Assembly (NCBI GenBank): GCA_020627925.1
Contig: JAHDFY010000001.1
Span: 1,583 to 41,582, forward strand
Source of the DNA: a bacterium
Lineage (GTDB): Bacteria; Patescibacteriota; Gracilibacteria; Absconditabacterales; Absconditicoccaceae
Length of the DNA: 40,000 bases
Direction: 5' to 3'
In this document: positions 3,113 through 25,573 of the stretch, in pieces
Layout: every line of letters begins with the position of its first letter
Position numbering within the stretch: position 1 is the stretch's first letter
Translations under genes and position numbers: made by a program
The notes under the pieces: model-generated
What the model was told of the DNA's origin: nothing
Databases searched by the model: none
Seen by the model: only the letters and a program-made list of their open reading frames with translations

Positions 3113-3260
3113 AACTATACACGTGTCATTGGCATAGTAGAAATTGAATATGATGCAGTAGTAGATAAAAATACAGCCTTGTTTGACGGAAAATCTTATT
3201 CATGTAAGCACGACCTTGACTTACAAGAAATCTGTCAATGAAGGTTTGATACAGAAAAAA

Positions 3261-4043
3261 TACATTAATCAAAAATTTTAGTTTTTCTTAATGCAACCAT
3301 GGCAAGAATCGTAGCACTTTGATGAGGTGAAATTAGTGAAAAAACCACATTAAAAATTGATAAAGAAATAATTGATTTTTCTTGAAAAAAGAACCCCAAC
3401 TTATTGTTTATTCCTACTGCCAGCGGAGATTCAGAAGGATACTATACTGGCATTCAATCATACTTTTGATTATTATGATGTAAGACAGATGTTTTATACC
3501 TTACCAAGAATAGAGCTACTAAAAAAATAATTGAGGAGAAAATTCTATGAGCAGACATTATTTATGTTTGATGAGGGAACACACTTAAAATGATGACGCT
3601 TTGGAGAAAGTTAGGTGTTGATAAAACATTAAGGAAAGCTCTTAAAAAAAATATTGTTTTGTCTGGTCTTTCAGCATGAGCAATTTGTTGGTTCAATTTT
3701 GGTAACTCAGATTCTAGAAAATTTACGAGTTGAAGCAATAAACTCATCAAAGTTACTTGATTATGATTTGTGGATGCGTTACATTGTCCGCATCGAGATA
3801 GAGAAAAACATAGACAAAGTGATCTAAAAAGAATGATGAAAAATACTCCAGGAGTAGCAATCGCACTTGAAGATGATTGTGCTATTCAAATCAAAGACAA
3901 CCAGTATAGAATTATTACAAGCAAAAAATGAAAAAATGCTTACAAAGTTTACTGGAAAAGGTGAAAATTCTACAAAGAAGAAATTATTCAATTAAAAGAA
4001 TACTGTAATTTACAAGAATTAGTTGCAAAATAATCTACTAAAG
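3261..4043. repeat. 783-bp duplicated segment, copy 1 (partner 28608-29390)
   Basis: Collinear high-identity match seen by eye across the whole peptidase S51 gene plus about 38 bp upstream and about 10 bp downstream. The flanks are unrelated. Confidence 0.85.
3299..4033 (+). CDS. peptidase S51 (dipeptidase E / cyanophycinase-like) family protein, 244 aa
   Basis: ATG 3299 to TAA 4031-4033. Motifs IPTASGDSEGYY, IIYVGGGNT and VLSGLSAGAICW (Ser nucleophile context). About 14 of 23 Gly are TGA. Confidence 0.8.
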
Positions 4044-5956: not shown

Positions 5957-6004
5957 ATTTTATATATTGAGCAAAAAATGAAAAAAAAAATACCAACATA
6001 CTTT

Positions 6005-6346
6005 ATGGCACTAGCCATAATGACTATTCTAGCTTGATGTACTATAAACAATAAAATAGAAATAATAGGAGTTGAATCTTCTTTTTCTCAAGAGATTGAA
6101 GCTTTACAGTGAACATGGGATAGTATAGATAGTGAAGAGGTTTTGATTTTTAGCTGAAATAAAAAGTATGACTATTTTGGAACATGATTTTTTGGAAGTT
6201 GAATATTCTCGCTTGAAAATAAACAATTAACCGTTGTTAGTGAACGATGAGAAGATAGTTTTGGTTTTGTGATATCTACTGGAAATCAACTAACACTGAT
6301 TCATCTATGATGCGGAGCAGAAATAACATATGCTAAAAGAAAGTAA
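6005..6346 (+). CDS. lipoprotein (lipobox LAGC); start uncertain because of an A9 tract
   Basis: Frame verified from ATG 6005 to TAA 6344-6346, with ...MTILAGCTINNK (the lipobox Gly is TGA). An upstream ATG at 5979 would give the canonical MKKKIPTYFMALAIMTILAGC, but it is out of frame by 1 nt across the A9 run 5982-5990. Confidence 0.5.
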
Positions 6347-8557: not shown

Positions 8558-8564
8558 TCATAAT

Positions 8565-8597
8565 AGTAGACAAAATCATTTTTTGTCTACTTTTTCT
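8565..8597 (+). terminator. intrinsic terminator of copA (hairpin of the AGTAGACA family)
   Basis: AGTAGACAAAA-tcatt-TTTTGTCTACT followed by a T-run. The same stem sequence recurs at 10443, 16865 and 20510. Confidence 0.6.
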
Positions 8598-8686
8598 TTT
8601 TAGTTTATTGGTCTAAGTAAGTCTATCTTTCGTTTACATAACTATATAAAAATCATCATACAAGATCTTTGGGTTCTTGAATTTTT

Positions 8687-9016
8687 TTATGATTTCAAAA
8701 TCTCTGATGCAATTTTATCAAAATCAATAGTTTGCTTTATAGTCTTTCCAAAATGACTAGGATAGACAAATACTTCATCTTTGATAGCACTAATATCTGA
8801 AAGGTAGGATAAATTATTATCCCATAATTTTTCAATAACTATCTTAGTTTTTATATAGAGATCATACAAATCTTTCATTTTTCAGTTTAAATCCACAATT
8901 TTTTTATTAAATTCGATAGCAATGTATGGCAATAAATCTCCCATAGCAAGAGAAGAAACTCTAACCTTAAAGCCATTTCATAAATCAAACTCCTTTCACT
9001 TTCAAACATCAGTCAT
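8687..9016 (-). CDS. hypothetical protein (109 aa from the first ATG; the frame is open further upstream to the recombination core)
   Basis: TAA at 8687-8689 and ATG at 9014-9016. The same frame stays open and protein-like up to about 9180 but holds no ATG/GTG/TTG there, so the gene may be 5'-truncated. Confidence 0.35.
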
Positions 9017-9182
9017 ATTAAATTCAAAATCTAGGTATTTATTTGTAGTTTTACCTCATTCTAATTTTGAATAAATCTCATCATTTTTATTATAAATCTT
9101 ATCTGTAATTTCACTTCTCCATTCGTTGAAATATGTATTATCAACTCTTCATCTTAAAAGTCAATCTTCAATATTATTTTTT

Positions 9183-9311
9183 CATGGAGCACCTAATCGG
9201 TGAACTTTCGAACATTTGTACAAAGCATTCAGCTCACAACTACACTTTCAGATAAACAAGGTAGTTTTGTGGCATAAAGAGGTGATTAAATCCTTATCGG
9301 AAAAAAGTTAG
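9183..9311 (+). pseudogene. orphan C-terminal tail of a large serine recombinase ORF (43 codons)
   Basis: HGAPNRGTFEHLYKAFSSQLHFQINKVVLWHKEVIKSLSEKS*, collinear with the tail that continues the recombinase remnant at 18856-18984. The two copies differ at 12 codons, 5 of them synonymous, and keep the same TAG. Confidence 0.4.
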
Positions 9312-9471
9312 TCCATAACTAAGAAAGGAGAGTCAGAAGCTAACATTTTAAGCTATTTGATTCTTTTTTGGTATATACGGTGATGGGAAGGGAACAAGTT
9401 TGCAAAATAACTATAACATTTCTAATCAATAGACAACGCAGAAAAAAGCCCTCAAAAACAACACAAACATA

Positions 9472-9499
9472 TTGACATATACACAACAAAAAATATAGT
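9472..9499 (+). promoter_or_regulatory. sigma70-like promoter candidate
   Basis: TTGACA (9472-9477), 16-nt spacer, TATAGT (9494-9499), about 50 nt upstream of the 9549 ATG. Confidence 0.35.
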
Positions 9500-9548
9500 A
9501 TTATAAATACAAAAATTAATTCCAATCACAAAATAAAAACAGTGAACA

Positions 9549-10400
9549 ATGAACAAGTACCAATTTTTATTGCTTTGCGTAATCATATTAATTACAGCAA
9601 GCTGCTCTAATGAAGCTAAATACCACAAAATTGTGAAAGACAAAAACCAGTTTCTTAAAAACTATCAAAACCGCCCATTATCCTCATGGACAAATGAAGC
9701 TGTAGATAGTATATTTCAAGGGTTTTTATCAAAAGAGACCTCTTTTGGAACAAAAGAAATTGCTCCCTTTCAACAAATTGATACTGTAACAGGGAAATTT
9801 AAAACTGATACAACATGGTTTCAATACCATAGTGGGAAAAGCTTGTCAGGCAAACAAGAGTTCTTATTAGCAAAAAATCACCGTAATGACATCTTTTGTA
9901 TGGTAGCTGACCAGGAAACTGAACAAATGTTATACTTATACTTTTTCAAAGGAGATTCTTTGGTAATGGAGGTAGGATTAGATATCGTCTGGAACGAATA
10001 TCCTACTGTTACATTTCATTCTGTACTAAGATATTGTCCTATTGCAAAAACTAGGTACGACAACATGAAAGAAAAGGCATCATTGTATTCAGATTCAGTA
10101 GGTTATGCTAAAGATAAAAAATTAGCAGACTATGAAATTGAATATTATGAAAGTTTAGCCACGTTATATTCAGAAGATTTGGAAGCTATCTATCCATTTA
10201 GATCACGAACAGAAGCTGAGCACGCTCAATATTTCGTTAATTATGAAATGCCAAAATTTGCTTTAAGAAAAGTCGGAGAAAGAACAGAGGAAAAAGGATC
10301 TGCTTTAGCTTTAAGCTATTATAATTTAAGTAGAGACTTCAAAGAAATAGAAATGAATAGACAGGTAAATACAGTAATTGAATGGTTATCTAATATGTAA
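9549..10400 (+). CDS. lipoprotein, 283 aa, TGA-free
   Basis: Intact in the standard-code track. Signal peptide with ...LITASCSNE (SPII-type Cys). All 10 Gly codons are GGN. Confidence 0.7.
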   Translation: MNKYQFLLLCVIILITASCSNEAKYHKIVKDKNQFLKNYQNRPLSSWTNEAVDSIFQGFLSKETSFGTKEIAPFQQIDTVTGKFKTDTTWFQYHSGKSLSGKQEFLLAKNHRNDIFCMVADQETEQMLYLYFFKGDSLVMEVGLDIVWNEYPTVTFHSVLRYCPIAKTRYDNMKEKASLYSDSVGYAKDKKLADYEIEYYESLATLYSEDLEAIYPFRSRTEAEHAQYFVNYEMPKFALRKVGERTEEKGSALALSYYNLSRDFKEIEMNRQVNTVIEWLSNM

Positions 10401-10438
10401 CCAAAAAACACGAATAATACATATCAAGTATCATTGAT

Positions 10439-10565
10439 AAGATAGTAGACAAAATTACCTTGTGTCTACTATTTTTTGTTATCATAAAGAAGAAGCTATA
10501 TATTTATCTTGTTATTTTTTGTAAAGACCATTATATAAGAGCTAATGATAAAGTATTTTACTTTT
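10439..10565 (+). repeat. repeat R, copy 1 (terminator hairpin plus conserved tail)
   Basis: AAGATAGTAGACAAAATTACCTTGTGTCTACTATTTTTTGTTATCATAAAGAAGAAGC..., collinear with 20505-20662 apart from an internal deletion. Includes ATGATAAAG, the start of the gene seen at 20644. Confidence 0.75.
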
Positions 10566-10613
10566 AAAAAACATAATGAAACTCAAAGAAATTTCATACA
10601 AATAATTAGCGAT

Positions 10614-10638
10614 GGCGTGTGATGAGTTGGATCTATAG
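10614..10638 (+). pseudogene. 3'-terminal remnant of a tyrosine recombinase gene
   Basis: GGCGTGTGATGAGTTGGATCTATAG matches the last 25 nt of the integrase gene (22517-22541) with 2 mismatches. Confidence 0.5.
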
Positions 10639-10730
10639 AGACAACCCTAACCAAAATATAAGAGATAGAATATATTGCTCGATTTTTTTAGACATACTCA
10701 AATACATAGTTTACTTGAATACTATATTTG

Positions 10731-11393
10731 ATGAAAAAACAAAGACTTATTAATGCATTAAAAAAAATGCCACAGGAACAAAGAGATTGGCTAGAGAAGA
10801 CGAAACTAGAAGGCATTAAATTATTCAAAAAGGATAACTTTTTGTGGTATGTGTTGCTTCAAAGTTTTGCCACAATGGGTAACTCAAGAGGTCGAGAATG
10901 ACTGATGAAAGATAAAAACAACTACCAAAAAGTATCTTATGATAACCTTATACATATACCGGGTGAAAAAGTTTTTTCTCATATAGAAAATGTATTAAGA
11001 GAGTCCAAAGTTAGAATGCCTCAAAAGAAAGCAATATGGTTAGGTAAGAACCTTGAGTTTATAAAAAAAATGTGAGGTCCTAAAATCATGAAAGAAATTG
11101 CAGGCTACTATAAAAGTGCTGAGTGCAAAATATTATTTACCAAGCAGTTCTATTGAATTTGAGACAAGTATGCTAGAAACATGTGGATGGATGCATACCA
11201 TCCTGACTTTCACAATAATATAGCAGTAGATGTTCGTATCAAAAAAATATTAGAAAGACTAGGCCAAAGCATAAAGCAATATGATAAAAGCGAAAAGTTT
11301 CTATTGGATATAGCACATAAAGCTGGTCTTAATTGACGAGAGTTGGATCGTTTACTATATCAGTATACAGAGTATTACATATCAAAAGTATAG
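10731..11393 (+). CDS. HhH-GPD superfamily (endonuclease III-like) DNA glycosylase-like protein, 220 aa
   Basis: ATG 10731 to TAG 11391-11393. FYGIGDKYARNMWMD...IAVDVRIKKILERLG parallels the LPGVGxKTANxVL...VDTHVxRVxxRLG architecture. Confidence 0.5.
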
Positions 11394-11410
11394 CATAAAA
11401 TTAACGATAG

Positions 11411-11593
11411 ATGAAGATGATAGGAAATAATTCGAACACAAGTCTGTTTGAGTATAAAAGATTAGACTTTAGAACTGCGTATACCTTATTGCACTGCTAC
11501 AGTGAAGCTTTTGACAAGAGGGATGAGATTGTTTCACAACTAACGAAAAAGCAAAGGATTCTCTATAGATTTACAGAGGCACAGATTTATTAA
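11411..11593 (+). CDS. hypothetical small protein (60 aa)
   Basis: ATG-to-TAA ORF present in the track, 17 nt after the preceding gene. No motif recognised. Confidence 0.3.
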   Translation: MKMIGNNSNTSLFEYKRLDFRTAYTLLHCYSEAFDKRDEIVSQLTKKQRILYRFTEAQIY

Positions 11594-11891
11594 TACGATA
11601 TATACACGGGAATAGAACAGAGAGGGGGTCCTACAGAAGTCGTTAAAAACTTAAGGTGACTTATAATGGTGTTAAAATGTAATTTCTTTTTATTGATAAC
11701 AATAATAAAAATAGTATCTAGCGATAAATCATAAGCTAGTGAAGACAAAAAAAGAAATTTATTAGTGACTAAAAACCCAGTTCGTTCCGTCGTGAAAATG
11801 TGTTTGAGCCTTCTGGATATCAAAAACGGAATAACTATCATACTACAAGTAACAAAATGATCGCAGATATTTAGTTTATTGAAGTTTAGCA

Positions 11892-12284
11892 ATGATAAGT
11901 AAAAAAGAATCAGTTAAGAGTTGAAAAATCCTTCCCAAGAGTGAAAGATTGAGAAATGATGATTGTTCTTTAGGTAGCCAAGGGTTGGACGAAGAGTATT
12001 TAAAATTATTTCTGAAAGCTTGCTTCAATGAACAAAAAAAAACGACTGAAGAAAATGGTCTGAGTGTTATGCTTGAAAAGATCAAGCAAAGTTTAGTAGA
12101 TCATAACTGTAGTTGAAATACGTTAACTACTAGCACACACATTCCTCAAGCTCAAAATGAGAACTTGATGTTTGAAGAGTTTTCTAAAGAATCTATGAGA
12201 AACGGACCCAGTCCTGAGATGAAGAAGATTATTGAGTTACTTGATGAATGCGTAACTGGTGAAGTTGTTGCTTGAAGTGATTAA
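11892..12284 (+). CDS. hypothetical protein (130 aa)
   Basis: ATG 11892 to TAA 12282-12284 with 3 in-frame TGAs. Composition is protein-like and acidic. Convergent with the methylase gene. Confidence 0.4.
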
Positions 12285-12287
12285 GTT

Positions 12288-13160
12288 TTACTTAGTTCTT
12301 CTTTTAGACTTTTTTATAACAGTGTTAGAGGCGATCAAGCCATCACTTAGAAATAAAATTTCCTTTCATTCTCTTGCCTTATATGCTGAGTGGTTGAATG
12401 AATACTTTCTTACTCTTTTACTTGGAACTCGGCCATATATTTTTTCTATTTCAGGGGTGTTATCATAAGAGACAATCCAGTTGATGTTTTTTATCTTTTT
12501 AATCTGTTCAGAAATATTCACATGTTCATCTTCTTTGTAGTGATTCATGTAGAGGGATGCTCCTTTTAAGTAGTAAGGTGGGTCAAAATAGAAGATTGTA
12601 TTATGGTTGTTAGATTCTTTTTGAATGAGTTTGATAAGATCTGGTGCATCTAGTTTACACAATCTGATACGTTTCTTGTGTTTAGCAATTAGTTTTATTC
12701 TCCTAATTAGCTCTGGTTTATTGAAACGACAATCAATTTTGTATTTTCAGTTCTGGTTGTATCCTCATATCATTCAAGCTGTTATTATTCCTGAGATATT
12801 TGTTCTGTTTAAAAAAAAAGTAGAAAATCATAGGTCTAAAAGCTTTGCCTTGCCTTTATTTTGTTGGATCTCTTTTGCTTTTTCCCAGTTGTCAACAGTG
12901 ATTTCTGTATTTGCTATTAATTCACAAAACTTTTTTGTATTCTTTAATACAGAATGCCAAAAGGCATATATTGAACGATCATAGTCATTAATAGTTACGT
13001 TGCTTACTTTTCACTCAATTAGTAAGTATAGTGCTACAGAAGCACCTCAAGCATACGGTTCAACGTAGTGCCCATTTATGCCATTATTAAAACAAACTTC
13101 AGAAATGAACTTAGCTAGTTTGTTTTTACCTCCTGGATACCTAAGGGGTGAGTAGAACAT
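12288..13160 (-). CDS. D12-class N6-adenine DNA methyltransferase (Dam family), 290 aa
   Basis: ATG 13158-13160 to TAA 12288-12290. Motifs LRYPGGK, EPYAGGASV (motif I), FFLNRTNISG and FYFDPPY (motif IV). Confidence 0.85.
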
Positions 13161-13175
13161 TGGAACTGTTATCAA

Positions 13176-14585
13176 TTAAAATGTTTTCCACAATATTTCA
13201 AAAAATTCTTCTAAATTGTCTCGTTGTAGTTTTAATGAGCTAGGAGTAGGTTGAGATTTGTATGAATGTACATACGAGTGGAAGTTATCAATATGTAAAA
13301 TATTCGATTTGTCAGAAGCTACCTTTCTGATGTTTTTCAGCGACTTACCATCTGCTATCTTTTTAGACTCTAGGTCGTTAGTTACTTTCCCAATCTTTCC
13401 CTTTATTATATCGTCCTTACTGAAGCTGAATCAGTTCTTTGCTGCATAGTAATCTAATGAAACCTCAAGAAAAACTCTAAATAGAACTCAGACCGCATTC
13501 GGTACTGATTTTTTACTATCATCTATGCACAAATCATCTCTTAATTCACGGTATATATTATTAATTTTAGGTTCTGTTATTTTTATGATAAATGACTTAG
13601 GTATTAGATAGGATCTAGTTGTGGATTTAGCTCTTGCTCTACTTTTTTGTTTTGCTTGTGTTTTATCTGTAAGAGGACTTCTTTTTTTCTTCTCAATAAC
13701 GATGGTCTTTTGATCAAATAAATTTGTTTTAATTTTTTCTGATATGCTTTTTTCAACATGTGCATAGTCCTCCTTAGTTATTGACTGAAGATAAGTTTTT
13801 TGTTCGCTATTCTTGTTTAAAGAACGTGAATTAATTTTATTCCCCGAGAAATCTTCTTTTTCTAGGGTATTGATAATTATAACTTTGAGTTCTTTTTGGA
13901 AATCTGGATATGAAACTAGTAGTTTTTTATCCTCAATACTGTATCAATACTTTTCCCAAGCAGACTTGCTTCCAATTATACGTCGAAAGTTTGTTACATA
14001 TCCAGGGCCCAAAACACTTTCTTTAAGAGCTTCTGGTAGATCTAATGTTTTGATTAGTTTTGCAATCTCAGCTTTGAAAATTTCTAAGTTGTTAGCATTT
14101 CAGCTACGTACTTTATAGTGAGTTCTCTCAAGGTCCCCCCAATTGACCTGATTGTTTCCATGTATATGTTTTCTTTCAATGTACGTAAATCACAAAGTTA
14201 AATCTTCTGTAACTATACATTCAAGAGAGTACGCTGAATCTATGTTTACTTCTTTTTTTTGCTGTAAAAAAAATGACTTTACAGTTTTATTAGGCGCTAA
14301 ATCAGGGTTACTAAGGAGTTTATAAACTGTTAGACGACGATTTCATTCTAACACTATACTTTTTTCCCCATCACGCAAAACTACAAGCTTCTCTAGTTGC
14401 GGGAAATTGAATTGATCAACAATACTTTGCGTGAGTTCCTTTATTTTAAAGTTAGGTTTAGAACAGAAATGCTTAATTAATTCTCCCTCTTCTTTTTCGA
14501 AATACTTCTCTGGAAAACGAGCATTTTCATCCCATAGTTTTAATTCTTGAATTGATATGTTTTCAGTTCGGATACTATTACTCAT
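13176..14585 (-). CDS. ParB/Srx N-terminal-domain protein with an uncharacterised C-terminal region, 469 aa
   Basis: Read codon by codon from ATG 14583-14585 to TAA 13176-13178. N-terminus ISIQELKLWDENARF...VVLRDGEKSIVLEGNRRLTVYKLL (ParB GxxR box). Its stop is 15 nt upstream of the methylase ATG, in the same frame. Confidence 0.6.
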
Positions 14586-14896
14586 CAGTAACTTGATTTG
14601 AGTTAAAATTAGAATCTTCTGGCAAAAGTGAATACTTCTTTTGGAGTAATATTTTAGATACGTTATGAAGCAATCCTATCTTATTATATAAGCTTTTATA
14701 GGAGTAAAACCATATATTTTTTTCATATAATTATATACTTATATAGATGTAGGCGATAAGCTATTTATTAGGCTTTTTGCTATCATTTTTCTCATAAAAG
14801 ATTATACTACGAACCGTAGAGAATCCAAGAGAGAAACAGACTTATAACGCCATTATAAGTTCGAATATTATCCATTTAAAGCATAATTGATTTTGT

Positions 14897-15241
14897 ATGC
14901 CGTGCTTAGCCAAAAACTCAGAGTGATTACCATGTAATGCTGCACCGATGAAGGGTGAAGATTACTGTTACATTCACAATCCACACGTTCCTGAAAATGA
15001 AAAGAAATTAGCCCAATCTCTAGGCTGAAAATCTAGTCCAGTTGTAGTAAAAAATACTCTAATAGAAAATGCTTCAGATGTGGCAAATTTGTTATCCGAC
15101 ACATTAAATAGAGTCAGAACTTGAGAAATATCTGTATCAGTCGCAAACTCTATTGGGTACTTGAGTAATCAATTTTTGAAAGCCAAAGAGGTCTCTGAGT
15201 ATCAGGACAAGCTTGATCATATTCATAGAGCGATCACTTAG
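14897..15241 (+). CDS. zinc-ribbon protein (114 aa)
   Basis: ATG 14897 to TAG 15239-15241. N-terminal C-x9-C-x11-C-x2-H (PCLAKNSEGLPCNAAPMKGEDYCYIH), a motif common in mobile-element small proteins. Confidence 0.45.
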
Positions 15242-15264
15242 CGTTTATTAAATTTAAAGTTAAG

Positions 15265-15543
15265 ATGTACTGAACAACAAGAAAAACAAAGCAGATGCGC
15301 AAGCTATTGTGAAAAGCATCGTCTATCAATGCAGTTAAAACAATTGTTTCAAACGAAGTAAACAGCTTGGAAGGTGGGAAGGGATTTTTAGATAAGTATG
15401 AATACGCTGAGTTACTGGAATCAACGACAGATAACCAAGAAGTTACTTCTTTGGGTCTAAAATGACGGGAAATGGTGAAGATGTTAGTTAATGAGGTGCA
15501 TCACAAGGCAGACAAGATTGTAGCTAATCATATTGCAATATAG
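15265..15543 (+). CDS. hypothetical protein (92 aa)
   Basis: ATG 15265 to TAG 15541-15543 with 3 in-frame TGAs. Confidence 0.3.
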
Positions 15544-15671
15544 GTCCTGGCCACAATCACCCAAGTGAAGGAGTTGATTATTTTACTGGTAATCCTGGTG
15601 CTTATGCAGGTCATATAGTTACTATAGTTGGCGTAAAGTTGACTCCAACAGGGATAATGGCAGTAGTGTAA
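15525..15671 (+). pseudogene. possible CHAP/NlpC-P60-type amidase fragment, TGA-free
   Basis: Startless open frame ...GPGHNHPSEGVDYFTGNPGAYAGHIVTIVGVKLTPTGIMAVV* (the GH-hydrophobic-V motif is typical of the CHAP His region). All 8 Gly are GGN. Confidence 0.25.
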
Positions 15672-15745
15672 GATATAATGCCTTAAGAGTAAGAGGTCTG
15701 CAATAGCCCTTAAATTGATTTGCATACAAGTCAATATTGCCTATA

Positions 15746-15780
15746 GTGATTCTAGGTTTTTTACTTAGAATCACTTTTTT
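15746..15780 (+). terminator. intrinsic terminator
   Basis: GTGATTCTA-N11-TAGAATCAC followed by T6, ending 1 nt before the next ATG. Confidence 0.5.
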
Positions 15781-15781
15781 G

Positions 15782-16840
15782 ATGAAAAAAATATTTATTG
15801 GATTCTTTGCTTTTGTATTAGGTGTCAGTATCGTAGCCGCTGAAGGTACATGTATTGAACTATTGATGGTGCATGAAAGTGATCGAAAAAATGAGAACTA
15901 CCACAAAAGGTTAGGGAAGATTAAAGATAAAATAGAAGGTTTACCTGTTGATATTAGGTTGAAAGTAATAAAAAAAATTGAAACTATAAATACAAGCCCT
16001 TGATTTTCTGATTTTTCTGAAATAAAAAAGTCTGTACTGCAAGATGTACAGAATATACTGCTTAATGTAGTATATAATTCATTAGAAGATGATCATGCGT
16101 ACACTAAAATATTAGATAAAGTAAAAGATATTAAGCTATATAGTGATAGTTATTGATTTGAAGGATTCTCTATCATTGGTGATGAAGTTTCTACTATAAA
16201 ATCTAATCAAGAAGAATACTGAGTGTACGAACTATCAAGGCTAGTAGAAGATACAAAGGTAGTATACGTAGTCAATACCTTACAGCAATCTAACGATTAC
16301 CAGAATAGTTTTCAGTGAAAAAGAATTCCATTTGACATATTAGGACAGTACTTTAAGGCGCGAGAGGATAATGATTTATCAATTGTCGCTTCAATTATTC
16401 AAGAAGGTATCGCAAACTGAATTTCTTTTGCGCCATTTACGGATACTTTGTGGTTTGGTGGTTGAGCTAAGTTGCTTTCAGTAGAGATACATAAAAAATG
16501 AGTTCGAGGTCTTGGACATTGAATGACTACTGGATCGCCTGAGTATTTTTTGCGATATATGACAGTAACTGGAGATAAGATCATCTATATGATAGAACCT
16601 TTAGATATATTTTACGATCTGAACGGGGATTGGAATTCAAATATTGAGTTTGCTCAAGACTTAACAAAAGATGAATTTACTAAACTGTCTAATGCTTGCA
16701 TAGCATGGGAACATAGACCATTATGTGATTCATGTACAGAGTATTTTGTTGATCGTATTGAGTGAAGAACTGATAATGATTATTTTAATACAATTAGGCA
16801 AAAGTTTCTATCAAAGATAGATAAAATACATAATGAATAG
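15782..16840 (+). CDS. secreted hypothetical protein (352 aa)
   Basis: ATG 15782 to TAG 16838-16840. Signal-peptide-like MKKIFIGFFAFVLGVSIVAA. Joins track ORFs 15737-16003 and 16523-16765 across TGAs. Confidence 0.5.
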
Positions 16841-16860
16841 ATGGCGAAAATTTTAATAAT

Positions 16861-16916
16861 TAGATAGTAGACATAAAAACATTGTGTCTACTATCTTTTG
16901 TTATCATAAAGAAAAG
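16861..16916 (+). repeat. repeat R, copy 2 (short form)
   Basis: TAGATAGTAGACATAAAAACATTGTGTCTACTATCTTTTGTTATCATAAAGAAAAGC matches the first ~57 nt of R1/R3 and then diverges. Confidence 0.7.
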
Positions 16917-17148
16917 CAAGGTTAGGTATGCTAGATCGCTGATTCAGGGGTATATTAATGTTACAGATGATGAAGAAGGAATCATCTCAAGATTGAATGA
17001 CAAACAGATGATTGTGTATGATTTAGACGGTTTTGAAGCCGCTACGGGGATTGACAGGTATTAAGAGAAGGGCGAATGAACCATAGATCTATTGTATTGT
17101 CCAATAGTATATTTACACTTATGCAAAGTATTTATATATTTCGTTACA

Positions 17149-18024
17149 ATGAAAAAAATAGTTGGGTTGTGTATATTATCATTTGTAGCAATGATTAGTT
17201 TTGTACAGTGAAGTAATGTTGAGCCTATCCCTGTGGTAGTATCTGATACTGAATTTTACAATAACAGTTTATCTGTAGAAGAAAGACAAACAATAGTTAA
17301 AATTATGACTATATTAGAGCCAATTTTTGAGCAGGATTCGAGTAGCTTTTCTGAATATGAGTGGCAAACTAACTCTGATTTTTTCTCCACAGTTAGGTGG
17401 AAATTGATGAAGAAGATAGTAGATAATATAGGTTCTGAAGATTCAATAAGAAATAAGTTGCTAAAAGAGTTATATTTTCAGATAGCGTACAAGAAAAAAA
17501 TTCTTCAAGATGGAGTAGATCTTGAGTATAGCAGATATCTATCACCTGATTATAGTATGAATGGTTATGATGGGACTATCGTGCTTGAAGGGTATCTAGT
17601 GTCACCGAATGATATGTTCATAGAAGAGATAGATGCTTGATGAAGAAGAATTATTGAGGAGGAGCAAGTATATATTGATGCTAAAAGTTACTTTTTTGTA
17701 ACACAGTGAAAAAATGCTGATCTATTAGAACAACATATGAGTCTAAGATATAATATAGATGTTGTTAGTGATATGTTAGACTCTCGCTTCAAAAGAAGCA
17801 TTGGGCTATCTTGCTTATGAGCGTATGAAAATCTTGATCTTGATGTACTGCTTGATGCAAGTGCTGACAATCCAGTAAGACTTAAGGTATCAATGACATT
17901 CCCAGAAAAACAATGGCCGTATACAAAGTTTGATGCACCAATAAACGATGTATACACATATTATCATGAAATTAATGATTGTAACAAAAATGGTTTTGAC
18001 AATATTGAAGTAATTACTAATTAA
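17149..18024 (+). CDS. secreted hypothetical protein (291 aa)
   Basis: ATG 17149 to TAA 18022-18024. Signal-peptide-like MKKIVGLCILSFVAMISFV. Extends track ORF 17233-17640 on both sides through TGAs. Confidence 0.5.
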
Positions 18025-18026
18025 AG

Positions 18027-18059
18027 AAAAGGGAGTACCTAAAATAGGTTCTCCCTTTT
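18027..18059. terminator. bidirectional intrinsic terminator between convergent genes
   Basis: AAAAGGGAG-N15-CTCCCTTTT, with A/T runs on both sides. Confidence 0.6.
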
Positions 18060-18086
18060 AATATTCAAAAGATTTTAATCTTAATC

Positions 18087-18660
18087 TTATGGTTTGTAGA
18101 ACGGATGCGAATACACATTACCGTTATCATCAATAACTCTTACAGCATACCAACCTGAAGCATATGTACTTGTGTTCATCGTAAAGGTATTCACTGTTGG
18201 GTTGAATGTTCCATCTTCTTGTGGTTGTCCACCCCAGGTAAAAACCTCATACGATGAAATCATAATACCATTCCCAAATACATCAACAGATGCTGTAGTT
18301 GGAACACCCATTGTGATCGTCATTCCATCACCAACTGAACAAGTAGAAACAATGTTTTGAGATACGTAAGCGGAACTAATCATTCCATTGCTTGGATTTA
18401 GCTCATCAATACCATCAATTTGAGTGCCATTGTCATAGTAGTCTATAATATCAATAACGCCATTTTTGTTTCTTAGCTCTTGTAGATTGAGTCTTAGAGA
18501 ATCTTTATTTACTTCAAAGTGAATATGATTTCCTGTAGTTCCTTTTGAGTTTCCAGTATTATTTCCACTACCTCCATTGTTTCCACTACATAGTGTTGTA
18601 TTTAAACACTGGTTGTGGCAGTAGTTTTGAAAGTCAGTCCAGCCATTACCATCAATGTTA
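18087..18660 (-). pseudogene. 5'-truncated M23 (LytM-type) peptidase gene, TGA-free
   Basis: The frame ends at TAA 18087-18089 and reads ...GNHIHFEVNKD... (M23 HxH block) plus a beta-rich C-terminal domain. No start: the frame abuts the recombinase remnant at 18660/18661. About two dozen Gly codons, all GGN. Confidence 0.6.
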
Positions 18661-18984
18661 AATCATAAGCTTATTGAGTTTGAGATGTTTATACAGTTAG
18701 CCAAGAACGCAGGTGCATACTTTAAAAACTCTACATATGTTCGAAAGGCTAAAATCATAGAAATATTTTTTTCGAACATCATCCTAAATTGAGAAAAGGT
18801 AGTTCTCAATTATATTTTTGATACGAAAAAAACCGCCCTACTCGGACAGTTCTTTCATGGAGCACCTACTCGGTGAACTTTCGAACATTTGTATAAAGCT
18901 TTTAGCTCACAACTACCTTTTCAGATAAATAAGTTCATTTTGTATCATAAAGAAATGATTAAATACTTATCGGAAAAAAGTTAG
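18661..18984 (+). pseudogene. 3' remnant of a large serine recombinase gene with its own tail
   Basis: 18661-18852 is collinear with 30883-31074 (the end of the intact recombinase gene). The frame continues across the core into ...FFHGAPTRGTFEHLYKAFSSQLPFQINKFILYHKEMIKYLSEKS* (TAG 18982-18984). Confidence 0.65.
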
Positions 18985-19167
18985 TTCATAAGTAAGGAAA
19001 AGAGAATCAGGAACTATTGTTTTCAGTCATTTGATTCTCTTTTGATATATTCGGTAATAAGGAGGGAACAAAATATATTGCAATATGTTACTACAATAGA
19101 TATAATCATATCAGTTTATCACTGATAAGAAGATGATCAGAAACAGACAAAACACATCATATTATTA

Positions 19168-19265
19168 CTACTTCCGCAGCTAGGGAGAGTTTTTCTGCAT
19201 ATTCATTTTCGACTAAACTACTTCCTATACAGCACTCTAGCTGACAAAGGGAAGTAGTTTTTTTA
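19168..19265 (+). promoter_or_regulatory. tyrS leader with nested or alternative hairpins ending in a T-run (attenuator candidate)
   Basis: CTACTTCC occurs twice (19168-19175, 19218-19225) and either copy can pair with GGAAGTAG (19250-19257), which is followed by T8. CAGCTAG (19177-19183) pairs with CTAGCTG (19237-19243). The tyrS ATG is at 19282. Confidence 0.35.
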
Positions 19266-19281
19266 TTCTAACACAATTACA

Positions 19282-20496
19282 ATGAAAACGATTAATACTA
19301 ATGAACAACTTATTGATGATATTCTTTCACGTAGTATCTCAGAAATACTACCGTCAAGAAAAGAATTAAAAGCAAAGTTATTAAGTGGAGAGCGCTTAAG
19401 AATATACATTGGTGCTGATGCAACATGAACAGCATTACATTTGTGACATGCTACTAACTTTATACTATTAGAAAAATTGAGACAATTAGGTCATGAAACA
19501 ATAATCTTGATCTGAGACTTCACCGCTCGTATTGGAGATCCTACAGATAAAACTGCCACAAGAGTAAAGTTGACACGCAAACAAGTAATTGAGAATACAA
19601 GCACTTGGTTAGAACAAATTGGAGCAGTAGTTGATATCAAAAATAAAGATAACCCTGTTTCTGTAGTCTACAATCATGATCGACTATCAAAACTTAGCTT
19701 TGAAGACATTATAGAACTCTCATCTCACTTTACTGTTCAGCAGATGCTGGAAAGAAGTATGTTTAAAAAAAGAATAAAAAGGAATCAACCTATCAATATG
19801 CATGAGTTCTTTTACCCACTAATGCAGTGATTTGATAGTGTGGAGCTAGATGTTGATGTTGAGCTTTGTGGTAATGATCAACTATTCAATGCTATGACTT
19901 GAAGAACATTACTGAAGAAAATTAAGAACAAAGAAAAGTTTGTTGTAACTACAACTCTACTAGAGAACCCCAAAACATGAGAAAAAATGATGTCCAAAAG
20001 TCTAGGCACTGGAATATTTCTAGATGAAGATCACATATCAATATTCTGAAAAGTAATGGCTCAACCAGATGAAAATATTCCACAACTGTTTACGGATTGT
20101 ACATTAGTATCTATCGAAAAAATTGATGAGATTCTATCAAATAGTTCTAATCCTAGGAATAGTAAACTTGATTTAGCTTGGAAAATAACCAATCTATTTC
20201 ACTGAAAAAAGTTAGCTGATTTTGCCAAAAAGAACTTTGAGAAAGTAGTTCAAAACAAAGAAATTCCGACAAACATTGATGAGATAATATTATCCAAAGA
20301 TTCCATTAATATTGTAGAAGCACTAATTCTAGCTAATTTTGCAAAATCAAATGGAGAAGCAAAGAGATTGATTGCTCAAAATGGAGTGAAAATTGATGGT
20401 AATACTGTCTCGTCAGTTAATAAGGAAGTTTCTCTGAATCAAGAATGAGTAGTTATACAAAAGTGAAAGATACATTTTGTAAGAATCAAAAACTAA
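19282..20496 (+). CDS. tyrS: tyrosine--tRNA ligase, 404 aa
   Basis: ATG 19282 to TAA 20494-20496. Motifs GADATGTALHLGH (HIGH; Gly = TGA 19444-19446), LIGDFTARIGDP and KMMSKSLG (KMSKS), plus a C-terminal S4-like domain. Confidence 0.9.
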
Positions 20497-20504
20497 ATGG
20501 TGTT

Positions 20505-20662
20505 AAGATAGTAGACATAATTACCTTGTGTCTACTATTTTTTGTTATCATAAAGAAGAAGCCACGTTTTGGTCTTGCTATTTTTTGGAAGGATCATTAT
20601 ATAAGACATAACTACAATTATTTTATATTTTGTCTTCTTATAAATGATAAAGAAGTTACTTA
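20505..20662 (+). repeat. repeat R, copy 3 (includes the tyrS terminator hairpin)
   Basis: AAGATAGTAGACATAATTACCTTGTGTCTACTATTTTTTGTTATCATAAAGAAGAAGC... The hairpin AGTAGACA/TGTCTACT plus T-run is collinear with R1. Confidence 0.75.
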
Positions 20663-21948
20663 AAGTGTTCTTTTGATGAGATGACAAAATAGTTCCTCGG
20701 AACACATATTTCCCAGATATTAGTAGCGCACCAAAGGACATTCAAAAATCCTATCAATTTATCAGATCAAAACTGAAGAAATGAGAATATTTTGATGTTG
20801 GAGAAAATTTGTCATATTTATTTGCCTACATCTACGAAGTAATAAATGACTTTGCCCATAGTAGCGATATAGAAACACTCGAGAAAGAATTTGATATATT
20901 AAGAAAGAACTACAAAGACACAAAAATAGTTAGGTACTTAGATTCATGGCAAGAAGAAGCCTACTTATACCTAGGAGAACATAAAAAAGCTTGGGAATAT
21001 GCCCAAAAGCATTCATACTCAGGAATAGAAGACATCCTATACTACTGAAGAAACATATGATCCAGTATTGAACTATCTTGAAAGAAGTTTTTATCCATAT
21101 TTGGAAAATCTAGCTTAACAAAACTAGGTAAAGAAAATCTTGATGACATTGAAAAGTTGGTTGGCTTGTTTCTTTCTGATTTCCATATAGAGAATTGAAT
21201 GAACTTCATTGATTACTTTTGCAAAGATATTGGAAAAGACATAACTGAAGATGACCTTAAAAGCTATCTATGCTTCTTTGATAATGAAGAAGAGTTTAAT
21301 GAGTATATTTGATATGATAAGTGACAATTTGAATTTCAACATAAGACAGAGTCAGATCATATTGGAGTATACAAAAAAGAACTGTTTAATGGGATAGTAC
21401 GTATACCCAAAACCGAAGTATTTAAGCAAGAAGGCTTTACAGTTACCGTAACTAGCTCAGAAAGTGTAAAAGCAACTCATGAGGTAGAAGCAATACAACT
21501 AGGTATTTTCTTCAACAAAGCTATTAGCAATTATGCTAAAAAGACAATTAGAGAGTGTGAGAATACATATCGTGAAGAAGCAGGAATACCCAAAATTTGA
21601 GAAGGATGGGTATCAGAAACACAACTCTACCATAGAATCTCCAAAGAATTCCCAGAAATTAACATTAAACATCACTGAAGGCCAAGTTGGTTATGAAGAC
21701 AGCACCTAGATATCTACATTCCAGATCATAACATTTGAATTGAATACCAAGGAAAACAACACCAAGAACCTGTTGAATACTTTGGCTGAAAAGAAGCATT
21801 CAAAAAACAGCAAGCAAGAGATAAGAAAAAGCAAAAGAAATGTAAGGATAACAACTGTCACCTTATCTATGTATATGAATGATATGACTTTAGAGAGATT
21901 GCAAAAAGTATTTCAACAATTATTCAATCTCAAAATAACAATGAGTAA
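20644..21948 (+). CDS. protein with a C-terminal Vsr/DUF559-like (PD-(D/E)xK) endonuclease domain, 434 aa
   Basis: Codon-by-codon read from ATG 20644 to TAA 21946-21948. C-terminus ...GEGWVSETQLYHRISKEFPEINIKHHGRPSWLGRQHLDIYIPDHNIGIEYQGKQHQEPVEYFGG...RDKKKQKKC (DUF559-type D..IEYxGxQH). No motif recognised in the N-terminal ~270 aa. Confidence 0.55.
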
Positions 21949-21950
21949 CC

Positions 21951-22541
21951 ATGCAATTCGTAGAACCAATCAGAGATAAAAAGAAGATTGCCCAAATAAA
22001 AAATACATTGAAGGGTGAAGGCAAAATAAGAGAACTCCTCTTGTTCCATTTCGGTATTGTATCTGCCCTTAGGATATCAGATATCCTTGCCGTCAAGGCG
22101 AGGGATCTGTATGAAGAAAACTTAACAATCAAAAAAGAATTCACCCTAAAAGAGAAGAAAACAAAGAAGACGCAAAGAATAACAATAACCCCTTGATTGA
22201 AAGATACATTACACTTATACCAAGAGACATATCCTAATATCATAAAGAACCCAAACAATTATCTATTCTTCCATACAAAGAAGTCTATGATAGGAGAACA
22301 TCACATAGGGAGGAAGCAAGCATGGAAGATGATATGAGACTGGTGTAACGCCGTCTGATTAGATTGAAGATATGGATCACATACGCTTAGAAAGACATGG
22401 TGATACCATGCCAGAAAAAAAGGAATTCCAATTCCATTGATCCAAAAGAAACTAAACCACGTCAGCACATGAACAACGCTTAAATACCTTGGTATTACAC
22501 ATGAAGAATTAGCAAAGGCGTGTGATGAGTTAGATCTATAA
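21951..22541 (+). CDS. small tyrosine recombinase/integrase, 196 aa
   Basis: ATG 21951, 2 nt after the upstream stop, to TAA 22539-22541. Motifs VSALRISD (Arg I), GSHTLRKTWGYH (HxxR) and TLKYLGI (catalytic Tyr context). Confidence 0.75.
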
Positions 22542-22578
22542 ATACACAACAATAATTATTTATTAAAAAAATTTATAT

Positions 22579-24225
22579 ATGAAGCTAAAAAAACTAAAAA
22601 TACAATCATTCAGAGGATTAAACTGAAGTCAAAACGAAGTTGATTTTGAAAGTTCCAACATAATATTCTTACTTTGACAAAACAATGTCTGAAAATCAAC
22701 ATTCCTTCATGCATACATGTATTTGGTAACTACAAAACAAAAAGCACTTTTAAGCGACTTTCATAACCATGATGAGAGCATCCCCATCATCATAGAATGA
22801 TGGTTCAAGAAAGAAGAGGTAGATGACAATAATAAGAACCTAAACTCTGATCCTGATCGAGTTAACAAGTGGGTAAATGATGATTGATATATAAGGGTCA
22901 GAAAAAAATGGTCCAACGTTTGAGGAATAGCTCAAAAAGAAACATTTAGCACATCAAGTAAAACTTGGGTAAAAGACGGCTTTTGATGAATGGATAGTCT
23001 TTTTCAAAAGCATTCCCCAACACCTATTTTTATTGAAGCTATTGAAAGTGAAGAAAGCCTAGAAAAAAAAGTAAATGATTTAATCAAATCCGAACTCATC
23101 AAAAAGATCGAAGAAGAATACTCAGATCAATATAATCATATAGTTTCTAGCATATACTCACTACAAAATGAAATGATGTGATCAGATAAAATATCTGATT
23201 ATAACTTGGGCTTGAATACATACTTTCAAAAAGTTTTTAATAACTTAGAGCTAAAATTATCTCCTAAAGGAGAAGATGATATAACTCTAGTCAAAGCCTT
23301 TGAAAAAAATCATTCAATCTCAATCACTAAAGAATGAAATAACGATATACAAAACTTTGCACAACACGGACATGGAATAATTAGGCAAGTTCTTTTTAAC
23401 TTTCTAAGACATCATGGATCACAAAATCCAAACTCTTCATACATCCTACTTTTTGAAGAACCAGAAATTTTCTTACACCCCAAAGCAGCAAAAAAACTTA
23501 GATCTTGTTTGTATGAACTAGCAGAAAAAGAAAACATTCAAGTAATGTGTGCATCACATTCTCCAATTATGATTGACATATCAAAAGAACATTCATCAAT
23601 AGTTCGTATTGTAAGAAAAGACAACATTACTCAAACATATCAAGCATGAGATAACTTATTTCATAAAGACGATGAGAAGAAAAAACTAGTTAAAATGCTC
23701 AATAAGTTTAATCCACACATATGTGAAGTTTTCTTCGCAAATGAAGTATTACTCGTAGAATGAGACACAGAATCAATTGTGTATAGGGATCTATTATCAA
23801 GATTATATCCCAATAAGGAGTGCTTCGTACTTAATACATGATCAAAAAATAATATTCCTTTCTTTCAAGAAGCATTAACTCATTTCAACATAGTACACTA
23901 CATTATTCACGATGTAGATACTCCAAAGTTAGCTAATTGAAATACAAACTCAGCTCGAACATTAAATATAAAAATACGAGATAATGTTATACATGCAAAT
24001 AATATAAATGAAAACTTAGCAAGAAGATTAGTTCATGACAAGGACTTTGAAAGTGCACATAACTATAATTATTGCAAAACAAAGTGAAAACCTCTTTCTG
24101 CATTTGAGTTTGTTACAAATTTAGTTTGAACAGAAGATCTTGATTGTATAAATTATACTAACCTAATATGACGCAAAGAGGATTTCAATAGCCATGATAG
24201 TAAATACATAGAATCACTTATTTAG
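22579..24225 (+). CDS. OLD-family nuclease (ABC-type ATPase plus Toprim), 548 aa
   Basis: ATG 22579 to TAG 24223-24225. Walker A LLGQNNVGKST (both Gly are TGA), Walker B-like YILLFEEPEIFLHP, Toprim VLLVEGDTE ... IHDVD. No helicase partner gene follows. Confidence 0.75.
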
Positions 24226-24254
24226 TTTGAAAATAAATTAGCAATCAATAACAT

Positions 24255-24283
24255 ACTAGTGCCTCACAAGCACTAGTTTTTTT
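24255..24283 (+). terminator. intrinsic terminator of the OLD gene
   Basis: ACTAGTGC-ctcaca-GCACTAGT followed by T7. Confidence 0.7.
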
Positions 24284-24290
24284 ACAAAAC

Positions 24291-24425
24291 AACCCGATAA
24301 CTTACGCACAGTAAGAACCATTTTTTGGTATTCATTATGGACAAAGTAGGGGGTACGGCCACCGAAACGTCCATAGTGATTATCGGGTTGCTTGTGAGGC
24401 ATTTAGGTCGTGCCTCCTTTTTTGA
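24291..24425 (+). ncRNA. candidate structured RNA (multi-helix junction plus its own terminator); class unknown
   Basis: 11-bp closing helix CAACCCGATAA (24291-24301) / TTATCGGGTTG (24381-24391) encloses CTTAC-gcaca-GTAAG, ACCA-ttttt-TGGT and ATGGAC...GTCCAT. It is followed by GAGGCA-N9-TGCCTC and a T-run. Confidence 0.3.
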
Positions 24426-24467
24426 TTTGGCAAAATCCTAAAAAGATTTTAACCATTAACATCCATC

Positions 24468-24929
24468 ATGTTCTTTCTAATCAAACTCATAAGCATCATT
24501 GCCTTAGCTCTTATCGTATTAGCTAATATTTACTTTTATATAATGCAATGGCCTCTATGGGGTACTATTGCTTCAGTATTTGGAATTGGAATTATTACGA
24601 ATATTAGCTACTGAATTATTTACTTATATCTAGAAAAATGGGGGCATTCACAAGGATTACCTAAACACAAATCATTGTGGCAAACATTTGTTGATTGAAT
24701 CAATGAATCTTCATCAAAAAAAATGAGTCCTAGAACATGAATCTTAAGAATAAGCTGACTCAAAATTGCATTATCCATATTATTAATAGGTAACATTAGT
24801 ACTTCTTCATCTGAAATAATAACACCATTATTCAAGCAAATTAGTTTTGGAATAATATGCATTATGGTGATTAGCATTATAATAGACATAAATTCCATCA
24901 AAGCACTTATTAAGAAGTCTTTATCATAA
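24468..24929 (+). CDS. hypothetical membrane protein (153 aa)
   Basis: ATG 24468 to TAA 24927-24929 with 5 in-frame TGAs. Several hydrophobic segments. The competing antisense track ORF 24620-24901 has a less protein-like composition. Confidence 0.35.
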
Positions 24930-24953
24930 TTTTAGTAATTAATAGTAATACAT

Positions 24954-25256
24954 ATGCATGATATATGAGAGGTCTTAGAAATGTACTTTGGAAGGTGGGG
25001 ATTCAATGGGATTCACTCTTTCTTTTATAAACTAATCTTTGGGACATTAGTATTCATAGTTGCAATTTCTCTATTTGGCGGTATTGATGGAACATTCAAC
25101 AACCCAAAGACACAGTGAAAGAATTGAATACTAATTCTGTTATTAGTTTTATTTTGTATTGGTGCAGTAAAAGACCTAATGGTAGGAATTGGAGAAGAGA
25201 TTGAATTCCGTAAAATTAGAAAGAAAGTCAAAGACAGTGAATCAAAAAAACTGTAG
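24954..25256 (+). CDS. hypothetical small membrane protein (100 aa)
   Basis: ATG 24954 to TAG 25254-25256. Two hydrophobic segments and a basic C-terminus. Confidence 0.35.
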
Positions 25257-25573
25257 CTATTACATATGTAAACACGTCAAGTATAAGCAAACAACTCAAA
25301 CAAATATAAGTATACTAACGCATAATTGACATTTACTAGGGGGCGAGGACAGGGTATACTTTATCCTTAAAAACACCCTGAAAACCCCCTCCCAAGAATA
25401 TAGGGGGAGAATGATTAGCATGTATAGATGATTAACAATCCAGTTGAAGTTGTAGAGGCTCTCTATACACTACAAATAATCGGCTACCTGAAATATAGCG
25501 GGGGTACCTACCCCATTGTATCTTATGGTATAATGTAAAGAGGGACTATTTACAATTTTTCTAATGTAGAGTT

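Follow-up and report, generated by a model that had tools for sequence, protein, structure and literature searches.

A TGA-free gene relic of plausibly standard-code-compatible origin in a putative integrative element of a bacterium that reads TGA as glycine

We describe an open reading frame (ORF) devoid of TGA at 18087-18662 on the minus strand of a 40,000-nucleotide stretch from an Absconditicoccaceae genome (GenBank assembly GCA_020627925.1, contig JAHDFY010000001.1, positions 1,583 to 41,582), hereafter called the window, in which TGA encodes glycine. All 23 glycine codons of this ORF are GGN, and this deficit is not due to chance. The ORF, hereafter called the relic, is cut at its 5' end and lies near the right end of E1. 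We read E1 as a decayed integrative element that forms, with its sister E2, a tandem pair at the 3' end of a tRNA-Gly gene. A foreign origin compatible with the standard genetic code is the best reading of the relic; it is plausible but unproven, and we estimate its probability at roughly 0.5. A preliminary description of the same DNA had proposed an origin in a standard-code organism or phage for three TGA-free loci, namely the relic, a lipoprotein gene (9549-10400) and a short fragment (15525-15671). The proposal stands as the best reading for the relic, whereas the TGA statistic of the lipoprotein gene falls within chance and the short fragment brings no evidence.

Absence of TGA from the relic

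In cells using genetic code 25, TGA is read as glycine and translation terminates at TAA and TAG only. The window uses this code, as indicated by long reading frames that appear only when TGA is treated as a sense codon. Moreover, TGA (lower-case g) occupies invariant glycine positions in the HIGH motif of the tyrosyl-tRNA synthetase TyrRS (HLgH), in MurD (GTKgKST), in the copper ATPase CopA (CPCAMgLATP) and in PepE (YVggGNT). These positions bear out the earlier claim that this genome reads TGA as glycine, and a count for PepE gives the 14 TGA among 23 glycine codons that had been reported (the other 9 are GGN). It had also been stated that more than half of the glycine codons are TGA in most genes, which is overstated. 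Over 34 genes of the window (G+C content 33%), we counted 269 TGA, 163 GGA, 112 GGT, 48 GGC and 46 GGG codons; TGA makes up 42% of the total and exceeds 50% in about a third of the genes only. The per-gene TGA share ranges from 0.20 to 0.68 and is overdispersed, and across genes it drops as G+C content (GC) rises (likelihood ratio 10.6). The cell-wall core genes at 32871-36419, near the tRNA cluster, have a GC of 0.37-0.40 and a TGA share of 0.20-0.27. The rpsT gene is TGA-free as well, with two glycine codons, too few to count.

The relic departs from this background, with no TGA among its 23 glycine codons. The probability of such an outcome is 3.7e-6 under a binomial model and 1.1e-4 under a beta-binomial model fitted to the other 31 genes, the latter value rising to 0.004 after correction for 33 tests. 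When glycine codons were permuted, a run of at least 23 GGN codons was obtained in 0.09% of permutations (P=9e-4), and the longest run in any other gene is 8. The lack of TGA in the relic is thus not a matter of chance, and the relic is a robust outlier. If the relic and the lipoprotein gene are taken jointly, the 27 genes that have 10 or more glycine codons include two without TGA, against an expectation of 0.036 (P=6e-4).

We also considered causes of the deficit other than ancestry. A context test ruled out the next base and the next residue. Gene GC was ruled out too, the GC of the non-glycine codons of the relic being ordinary and the TGA share predicted from GC being 0.44. Likewise, an ORF born de novo from non-coding DNA would carry TGA at the random rate, that is ~1.8% of codons from base composition.

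Truncation of the relic at a recombinase remnant

The relic is interrupted at 18660/18661, exactly where a copy of the 3' end of a large serine recombinase gene begins (96% identity). No ATG, GTG or TTG codon occurs between 18662 and 18383, leaving the relic without a start codon of its own in that span. The annotated ORF of 230 amino acids is a chimera, whose ATG and sole TGA (18663-18665) both come from the antisense strand of the recombinase remnant. At its other end, the relic finishes with TAA-GAT-TAA-GAT-TAA, and the lipoprotein gene likewise stops at TAA. The relic and a TGA-containing gene converge across a common spacer of 62 nucleotides. The coordinates of the relic and of the features discussed below are collected in Table 1.

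Table 1. Coordinates of the relic, of the lipoprotein gene and of the putative elements that carry them (positions in the window)
Feature	Position	Strand	Remarks
TGA-free, 5'-truncated orphan ORF (relic)	18087-18662	-	191 codons; triple TAA stop; 23 GGN
LytM/M23-like C-terminal motif, ...GNSKGTTGNHIHFEVNKD...	18477-18572	-	weak SpoIIQ matches; upstream HxxxD half absent
Putative beta-sandwich resembling a type A sorting domain of the type IX secretion system	18111-18281	-	weak profile and Foldseek matches; extreme end of the ORF
Remnant of large serine recombinase gene, last ~200 nt	18661-18863	+	96% identical to 30883-31085; left edge truncates the relic
TGA-free orphan gene (lipoprotein gene), first gene of E1	9549-10400	+	283 aa; 10 GGN; TAA stop; putative signal peptide; lipobox-like ...LITAS followed by C
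Promoter-like site, TTGACA-16-TATAGT, near-consensus	9472-9499	+	50 nt 5' of the lipoprotein ATG; best match in 9-19.3 kb
Unique insert with lipoprotein gene	9398-10434	+	1,037 nt; flanks repeated around tyrS; same slot as 19072-20500
Open stretch previously reported as CHAP-like fragment	15525-15671	+	48 codons between stops; unsupported as gene relic
E1, putative decayed integrative element	9191-18863		9.7 kb
E2, putative sister element, more complete	18864-31085		repeats, cores
Junction core copy 1, left end of E1	9180-9190	+	TTTCATGGAGC
Junction core copy 2, E1/E2 junction	18853-18863	+	recombinase end joined to 9177-9397-type repeat; attP-like
Junction core copy 3, right end of E2	31075-31085	+	overlaps 3' end of tRNA-Gly(tcc), 31080-31156(-)

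Domain resemblances of the relic

Searches of Pfam, NCBIfam and PHROGs returned nothing above threshold at any of the three loci of the preliminary description. In the latter the relic had been called an M23 peptidase fragment, an identity that no profile confirms. Pfam Peptidase_M23 (PF01551) gave no match to the relic even at E up to 10, and the label goes back to a single motif, GNSKGTTGNHIHFEV. Only GNHIHFEV matches SpoIIQ, a protein of the LytM fold (chains 3tuf_B and 3uz0_B, E=0.09-0.4, below threshold), and the NCBIfam SpoIIQ profile gave E=0.11. The stretch G-x-S-x-G-T-T-G-N-H-I-H-F-E-V does recall the 'TG.STGPHLHFE' motif of the M23/LytM family, which includes degenerate members such as SpoIIQ. 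Of the two zinc motifs of M23 enzymes, HxH is present (H-I-H), whereas HxxxD is absent because the upstream region has been cut off at 18660. Unlike family members, moreover, the relic has a short stretch, rich in Cys and Asn, between Y-x-H and HxH.

The C-terminal part of the relic resembles a sorting domain of the type IX secretion system (T9SS), as suggested by both profile and fold comparisons. PF18962 matched with E=0.056 (14.2 bits for a cut-off of 27) and TIGR04183 with E=0.031 (14.3 bits for a cut-off of 23), both below the curated thresholds, and phmmer aligned the relic with the C-terminal domain (CTD) of mirolase from Tannerella (8qb1_A) at E=0.23. These weak matches cover residues 128-184 of 191, and their register agrees with the domain end. 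A single-sequence AlphaFold model reached a predicted local distance difference test (pLDDT) score of 44 overall and 50-66 in the C-terminal part. When this model was compared with the PDB by Foldseek, the top match, and the only one with E≤1e-3, was again the mirolase CTD (E=4.5e-4, TMt 0.65); the RgpB CTD came at rank 44, and Ig-like domains of Bacteroides also ranked lower. The four best matches in the viral library BFVD carry the annotation of a secretion-system C-terminal sorting domain. As a control, the model of the lipoprotein, with an equally low pLDDT, gave no fold match below E=0.4.

Overall, it is probable, though not proven, that the last ~60-80 residues of the relic form a tail resembling a T9SS sorting domain. 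Known T9SS cargo proteins (PF18962/TIGR04183; mirolase CTD) would share with the relic a C-terminal beta-sandwich, putative in the latter, of ~70-80 residues on a putative secreted hydrolase, to which the best fold matches in two libraries and the register of the profile matches can be added. Unlike them, the relic scores about 14 bits, has a model of low confidence, is truncated and sits in a genome of Candidate Phyla Radiation (CPR) type. The T9SS sorting domain is a hallmark of Bacteroidota-type secretion; to our knowledge, a CPR cell would not be expected to possess a T9SS.

The lipoprotein gene and the reported CHAP fragment

The preliminary description was right about the absence of TGA from two of its three loci (0/23 in the relic and 0/10 in the lipoprotein gene), whereas 15525-15671 is not a feature at all. 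For the lipoprotein gene, the beta-binomial probability is 0.0086, or 0.28 after 33 tests, and about one GGN run of 10 is expected among roughly 600 glycine codons. By itself, its TGA statistic is within chance, and the case is marginal. A putative lipobox was recognised by inspection (MNKYQFLLLCVIILITAS followed by C), with an atypical T at -3; neither Lgt nor LspA is encoded in the window. The protein has no family match in Pfam or NCBIfam, and its AlphaFold model (pLDDT 43) has no fold match.

The stretch at 15525-15671 had been taken for a fragment of a CHAP domain. With E values of up to 10 allowed, neither Pfam nor NCBIfam gave a match to it and the PDB gave no CHAP match; PHROGs, searched to E=1, offered nothing relevant. 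Moreover, the candidate CHAP Cys sits past an in-frame stop. We therefore rejected its assignment to CHAP (PF05257) for want of family support and with the Cys outside the frame, and the statement that two of the three loci are pieces of cell-wall hydrolases falls with it.

Two putative integrative elements in tandem at tRNA-Gly

A pattern search found exactly three copies of an 11-nucleotide core, TTTCATGGAGC, in the window, all on the plus strand. Self-comparison by blastn revealed that the ~210 nucleotides past cores 1 and 2 are 84% alike (9177-9397 and 18850-19071), and that a second pair of repeats, 10435-10560 and 20501-20625 (85%), flanks the lipoprotein insert on its other side. The two regions run in parallel after the first repeat, each with a gene (the lipoprotein gene or tyrS), a terminator element of 126 nucleotides and the 3' end of a tyrosine integrase gene, which is a 43-nucleotide remnant in E1 (10601-10643) and an intact gene in E2 (21951-22541). 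At the right end of E2, a large serine recombinase gene (29419-31079) precedes core copy 3, and its frame crosses the core; Resolvase and Recombinase domains were demonstrated for a paralogue of this recombinase. A recombinase gene beside a tRNA gene and a repeated core at the junctions, by which tRNA-associated integrative elements are recognised, are thus both present. We read E1 and E2, from this arrangement of repeats, as sister integrative elements in tandem, E1 having probably lost its recombinase gene except for the last 200 nucleotides.

From left to right, E1 comprises the lipoprotein gene, the terminator element, the integrase remnant, a gene without recognised function, a Dam methylase gene, the gene of a phrog_9592 protein, a small gene, a degenerate gap, two genes of secreted proteins, the relic and the recombinase remnant. 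No phage hallmark gene (portal, terminase or tail) was found in E1 with Pfam and PHROGs. E2 comprises tyrS, a TerB_N-like gene, the tyrosine integrase gene, an OLD nuclease gene, genes of membrane proteins, a first serine recombinase gene, a copy of pepE and a second serine recombinase gene, which abuts tRNA-Gly.

Tandem islands at tRNA 3' ends offer a close parallel, given the recombinase gene abutting tRNA-Gly, the identical 11-nucleotide core at three junctions, the attP-like internal junction, the cargo that differs between the sisters and the decay of one copy. Unlike in these islands, the enzyme encoded beside the tRNA gene belongs to the large serine recombinases and its frame crosses the core, and a short tyrosine integrase is found too. 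Neither an unoccupied site nor an excised form turned up for comparison in a scan of genome contigs with the hairpin pattern described below or in metagenome scans. Relatives of the recombinase were absent from IMG/VR, and two distant fragments were found in metagenomes. Rfam detected only tRNAs in the window, so the 9177-9397 repeat corresponds to no known RNA.

Several further features of the two elements were observed. The frame of the serine recombinase has no stop before the core and enters the tRNA gene (to 31137) or, internally, the repeat at 18850-19071; since it is open across the core, the C-terminal tail of the protein would depend on the state of integration. A hairpin terminator, ATAGTAGACA-N11-TGTCTACTAT followed by a T-run, occurs at 8563-8602, 10442-10481, 16864-16903 and 20508-20547, where it trails four unrelated genes (copA, the lipoprotein gene, a secreted protein gene and tyrS). 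Two of these copies extend to the 126 nucleotides mentioned above, with 85% identity, and only chance matches to the pattern were found in contigs of species-representative genomes. The cargo slot of E2 is occupied by tyrS (19282-20496). A second TyrRS (P0006), 85% identical, is encoded on the same contig, and the closest TyrRS from another organism, at 62% identity, is that of a CPR genome that uses the standard code and is therefore of no use as a background for the TGA shares. Two copies of pepE, 94% identical, are present (3247-4043 and 28593-29390), the second lying between the serine recombinase genes of E2. Both elements carry cargo of defence type, with an OLD-family nuclease (AAA_15 and OLD-like TOPRIM) beside the tyrosine integrase in E2 (22579-24225) and a Dam-class methylase beside the phrog_9592 protein, of 470 amino acids, in E1 (12288-14585).

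Proposed origin of the relic

Under the reading that we favour, the relic would be the 3' two-thirds of a gene from a pool without in-frame TGA. This pool may be a standard-code bacterium of the Bacteroidota or, more broadly, the Fibrobacteres-Chlorobi-Bacteroidetes (FCB) type, or else a phage or mobile element of these bacteria that is compatible with the standard code, and the ancestral protein was probably a secreted wall hydrolase of the LytM/M23 type with a terminal T9SS sorting domain. A standard-code gene ending in TAA or TAG would be correctly translated after import into a code-25 cell; it would start without TGA and acquire it slowly through GGA>TGA changes. Since TGA would be gained only by such changes, its absence would mark origin and relative recency rather than present function. 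The gene may have arrived as cargo of E1, which with E2 forms the tandem pair at the tRNA-Gly(tcc) 3' end. Subsequently, the 5' portion of the gene and almost the whole E1 serine recombinase gene would have been lost in a deletion, which would have fused the relic to the last 200 nucleotides of the recombinase gene.

Given that the recombinase remnant diverges by 4% from its source copy, the truncation is likely recent. Over the time since that event, 10 GGA codons would be expected to yield far less than one GGA>TGA change, so that the gene would have been TGA-free before the cut. Native-like codon usage combined with zero TGA speaks against an old transfer followed by drift and favours an AT-rich donor of similar composition. 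As for the lipoprotein gene, it would be an intact, promoter-equipped cargo gene in a swap slot at the opposite end of E1. It may share the history of the relic, and the swapped cargo slot provides indirect support for this.

Several observations weigh against a foreign, standard-code-compatible origin. A word-indexed search of 5.8 billion clusters returned only self matches for the relic and for the lipoprotein, as did, for the relic, an exhaustive phmmer search of 1.84 billion representatives. Moreover, nothing was found for the relic in IMG/VR, JGI metagenome contigs, GenBank phages or PLSDB, nor for the lipoprotein in IMG/VR or GenBank phages. Best-match taxonomy and codon usage had both been put forward earlier as checks on a foreign origin, and neither lends it support. 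As no homologue turned up in any collection searched, no donor can be named from taxonomy; had the gene been transferred recently from a well-sampled phylum, relatives would be expected. The non-glycine codon usage, third-position GC and GGN proportions of both ORFs lie in the middle of the distribution of the window genes and are native-like; the relic and the lipoprotein gene (GC 0.32 and 0.365) are outliers for TGA alone. The genes in the middle of E1 have a normal TGA share (0.35-0.50), and E1 as a whole is adapted to code 25. It should also be noted that the domain evidence lies entirely below curated thresholds and includes a structural model of low confidence, and that the statistical background is small, comprising 33 genes from one 40-kb window.

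Competing explanations

Native-like codon usage is what would be expected if both ORFs were native and their missing TGA reflected gene-to-gene heterogeneity or chance. The TGA share is indeed overdispersed and drops with gene GC, as in the core wall genes, and the lipoprotein gene alone (corrected P of 0.28, one such run per ~600 glycine codons) would fit this explanation. However, for the relic the overdispersed model still gives a probability of 1e-4 and permutation one of 9e-4, with no GGN run above 8 elsewhere and a GC-adjusted expected share of 0.44, and we consider a native origin of both ORFs unlikely. The orphan status and AT-rich, native-like codons would also suit fast-evolving phage genes of the same ecosystem. 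The ORFs could accordingly come from the mobile pool of the code-25 lineage itself, through a TGA-free phage or plasmid of broad host range rather than a standard-code bacterium, in which case the relic would owe its tail to a phage lysin or tail protein with a generic Ig-like module for cell binding. Code-11-compatible phages have already been described (PMC10746230), the best BFVD matches are phage proteins, and the ORFs lie in an integrative element with a Dam methylase and a gene of a PHROG family. On the other hand, E1 has no phage hallmark gene, its other genes are TGA-rich, the integrated prophages in PMC10746230 are all TGA-rich, and neither IMG/VR nor GenBank phages hold a relative. 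We regard this source as a serious possibility, second to the favoured reading, though one that we lean against.

Selection against TGA in resident genes appears improbable. It could arise if tRNA-Gly(UCA) were limiting, or if the genes also had to be read in a standard-code partner cell, and it would agree with the strongest promoter-like site in 10 kb standing before the lipoprotein gene and with the absence of TGA from rpsT and from 37923-38942, though these have 2 and 4 glycine codons only. Yet the strongest outlier is truncated, without its own start and with half of the catalytic domain gone, which makes current translational selection unlikely, and other genes of secreted proteins and lipoproteins use TGA freely (e.g., 7/13 in 5978-6346). 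An assembly chimera or contamination, in which standard-code pieces were joined at repeats, is very improbable. Repeats of 200-220 nucleotides with 84-96% identity do adjoin both ORFs and could mislead an assembler. However, both ORFs are flanked within 35-150 nucleotides by sequences that are repeated beside TGA-rich genes: the lipoprotein insert, 1,037 nucleotides only, lies between flanks that also flank the TGA-rich tyrS, and the relic has its 62-nucleotide convergent spacer in common with a TGA-containing gene. Moreover, the GC and codon usage of both ORFs fit the window, and the relic stops at the edge of the repeat rather than within it.

Relation to TGA-free phages

Phages without in-frame TGA, predicted to infect Gracilibacteria and Absconditabacteria and workable in either code, have been reported (Liu et al., mBio 2023, PMC10746230). 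In that study, nine of nine Gracilibacteria phages co-targeted by other bacteria were TGA-free and five of the nine were also matched by Bacteroidetes spacers, whereas the integrated prophages were all TGA-rich. The relic shares with these code-11-compatible phages TGA-free genes tied to code-25 hosts, TAA/TAG or back-up stops, a link to Bacteroidetes and standard-code genes that are readable in a code-25 cell. The differences are that one or two TGA-free ORFs are concerned here, that they are chromosomally integrated inside a TGA-using element, and that relatives are absent from the phage collections searched. The relic fits as a chromosomal trace of TGA-free phages. By definition, however, it is not one of that class, since E1 as a whole uses TGA and lacks phage hallmark genes.

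A broader proposal is that a TGA-free mobile gene pool, common to Bacteroidota or their phages, feeds genes into this code-25 CPR bacterium. Transfer would be one-way, because standard-code genes are readable in a recoded cell and not the reverse. We hold this tentatively, as rather doubtful. If such a pool exists, relics with Bacteroidota sorting signals would record the neighbour, host or prey of a CPR cell and give a clue to it from sequence alone. The relic would also be the first trace in integrated form of 'dual-code' phages, the existence of which has until now been inferred from clustered regularly interspaced short palindromic repeat (CRISPR) spacers only.

More generally, incoming DNA in recoded genomes can be recognised, and roughly dated, by the share of the reassigned codon in each gene. 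Should the pattern prove true of the whole genome, it would offer an inexpensive screen for gene flow from standard-code to code-25 organisms and for candidate partner organisms, as well as a chromosomal counterpart to the reported TGA-free phages. The only recognisable module of the relic is a probable secretion tag of Bacteroidota type, carried by a mobile element in a lineage about whose hosts and phages little is known. The case would be another example of horizontal transfer into recoded genomes, an already known type of event; it offers a useful marker logic and a hint, open to testing, that Bacteroidota are involved. Its weight is limited, since it comprises one short orphan ORF and one marginal gene.

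Other observations in the window

A third TGA-free gene, 37923-38942, encodes an acidic secreted protein of 340 amino acids with four glycine codons, too few to count. An exact match to it exists in a Logan assembly of run SRR14415275, whereas records of the lipoprotein and of the relic come from the NCBI contig only.

The ORF at 8687-9307 on the minus strand has its 5' 40 codons inside the 9177-9397 repeat. The copies of the repeat differ mostly non-synonymously (9/44 residues), so that this 5' stretch is probably non-coding and the start more likely lies at the ATG at 9016.

In the glycosyltransferase encoded at 32871-34088, the order of the Pfam domains is reversed, with Glycos_transf_1 at residues 6-137 and Glyco_transf_4 at residues 216-316, which suggests a permuted or fused gene.

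Finally, the database protein P0001, which corresponds to 18087-18779 on the minus strand, has W at a TGA codon (...SISLWFNIDG...). Judging from this residue, the deposited genome is translated with code 4 rather than code 25, so that every TGA-encoded glycine in the derived proteome would be wrong.

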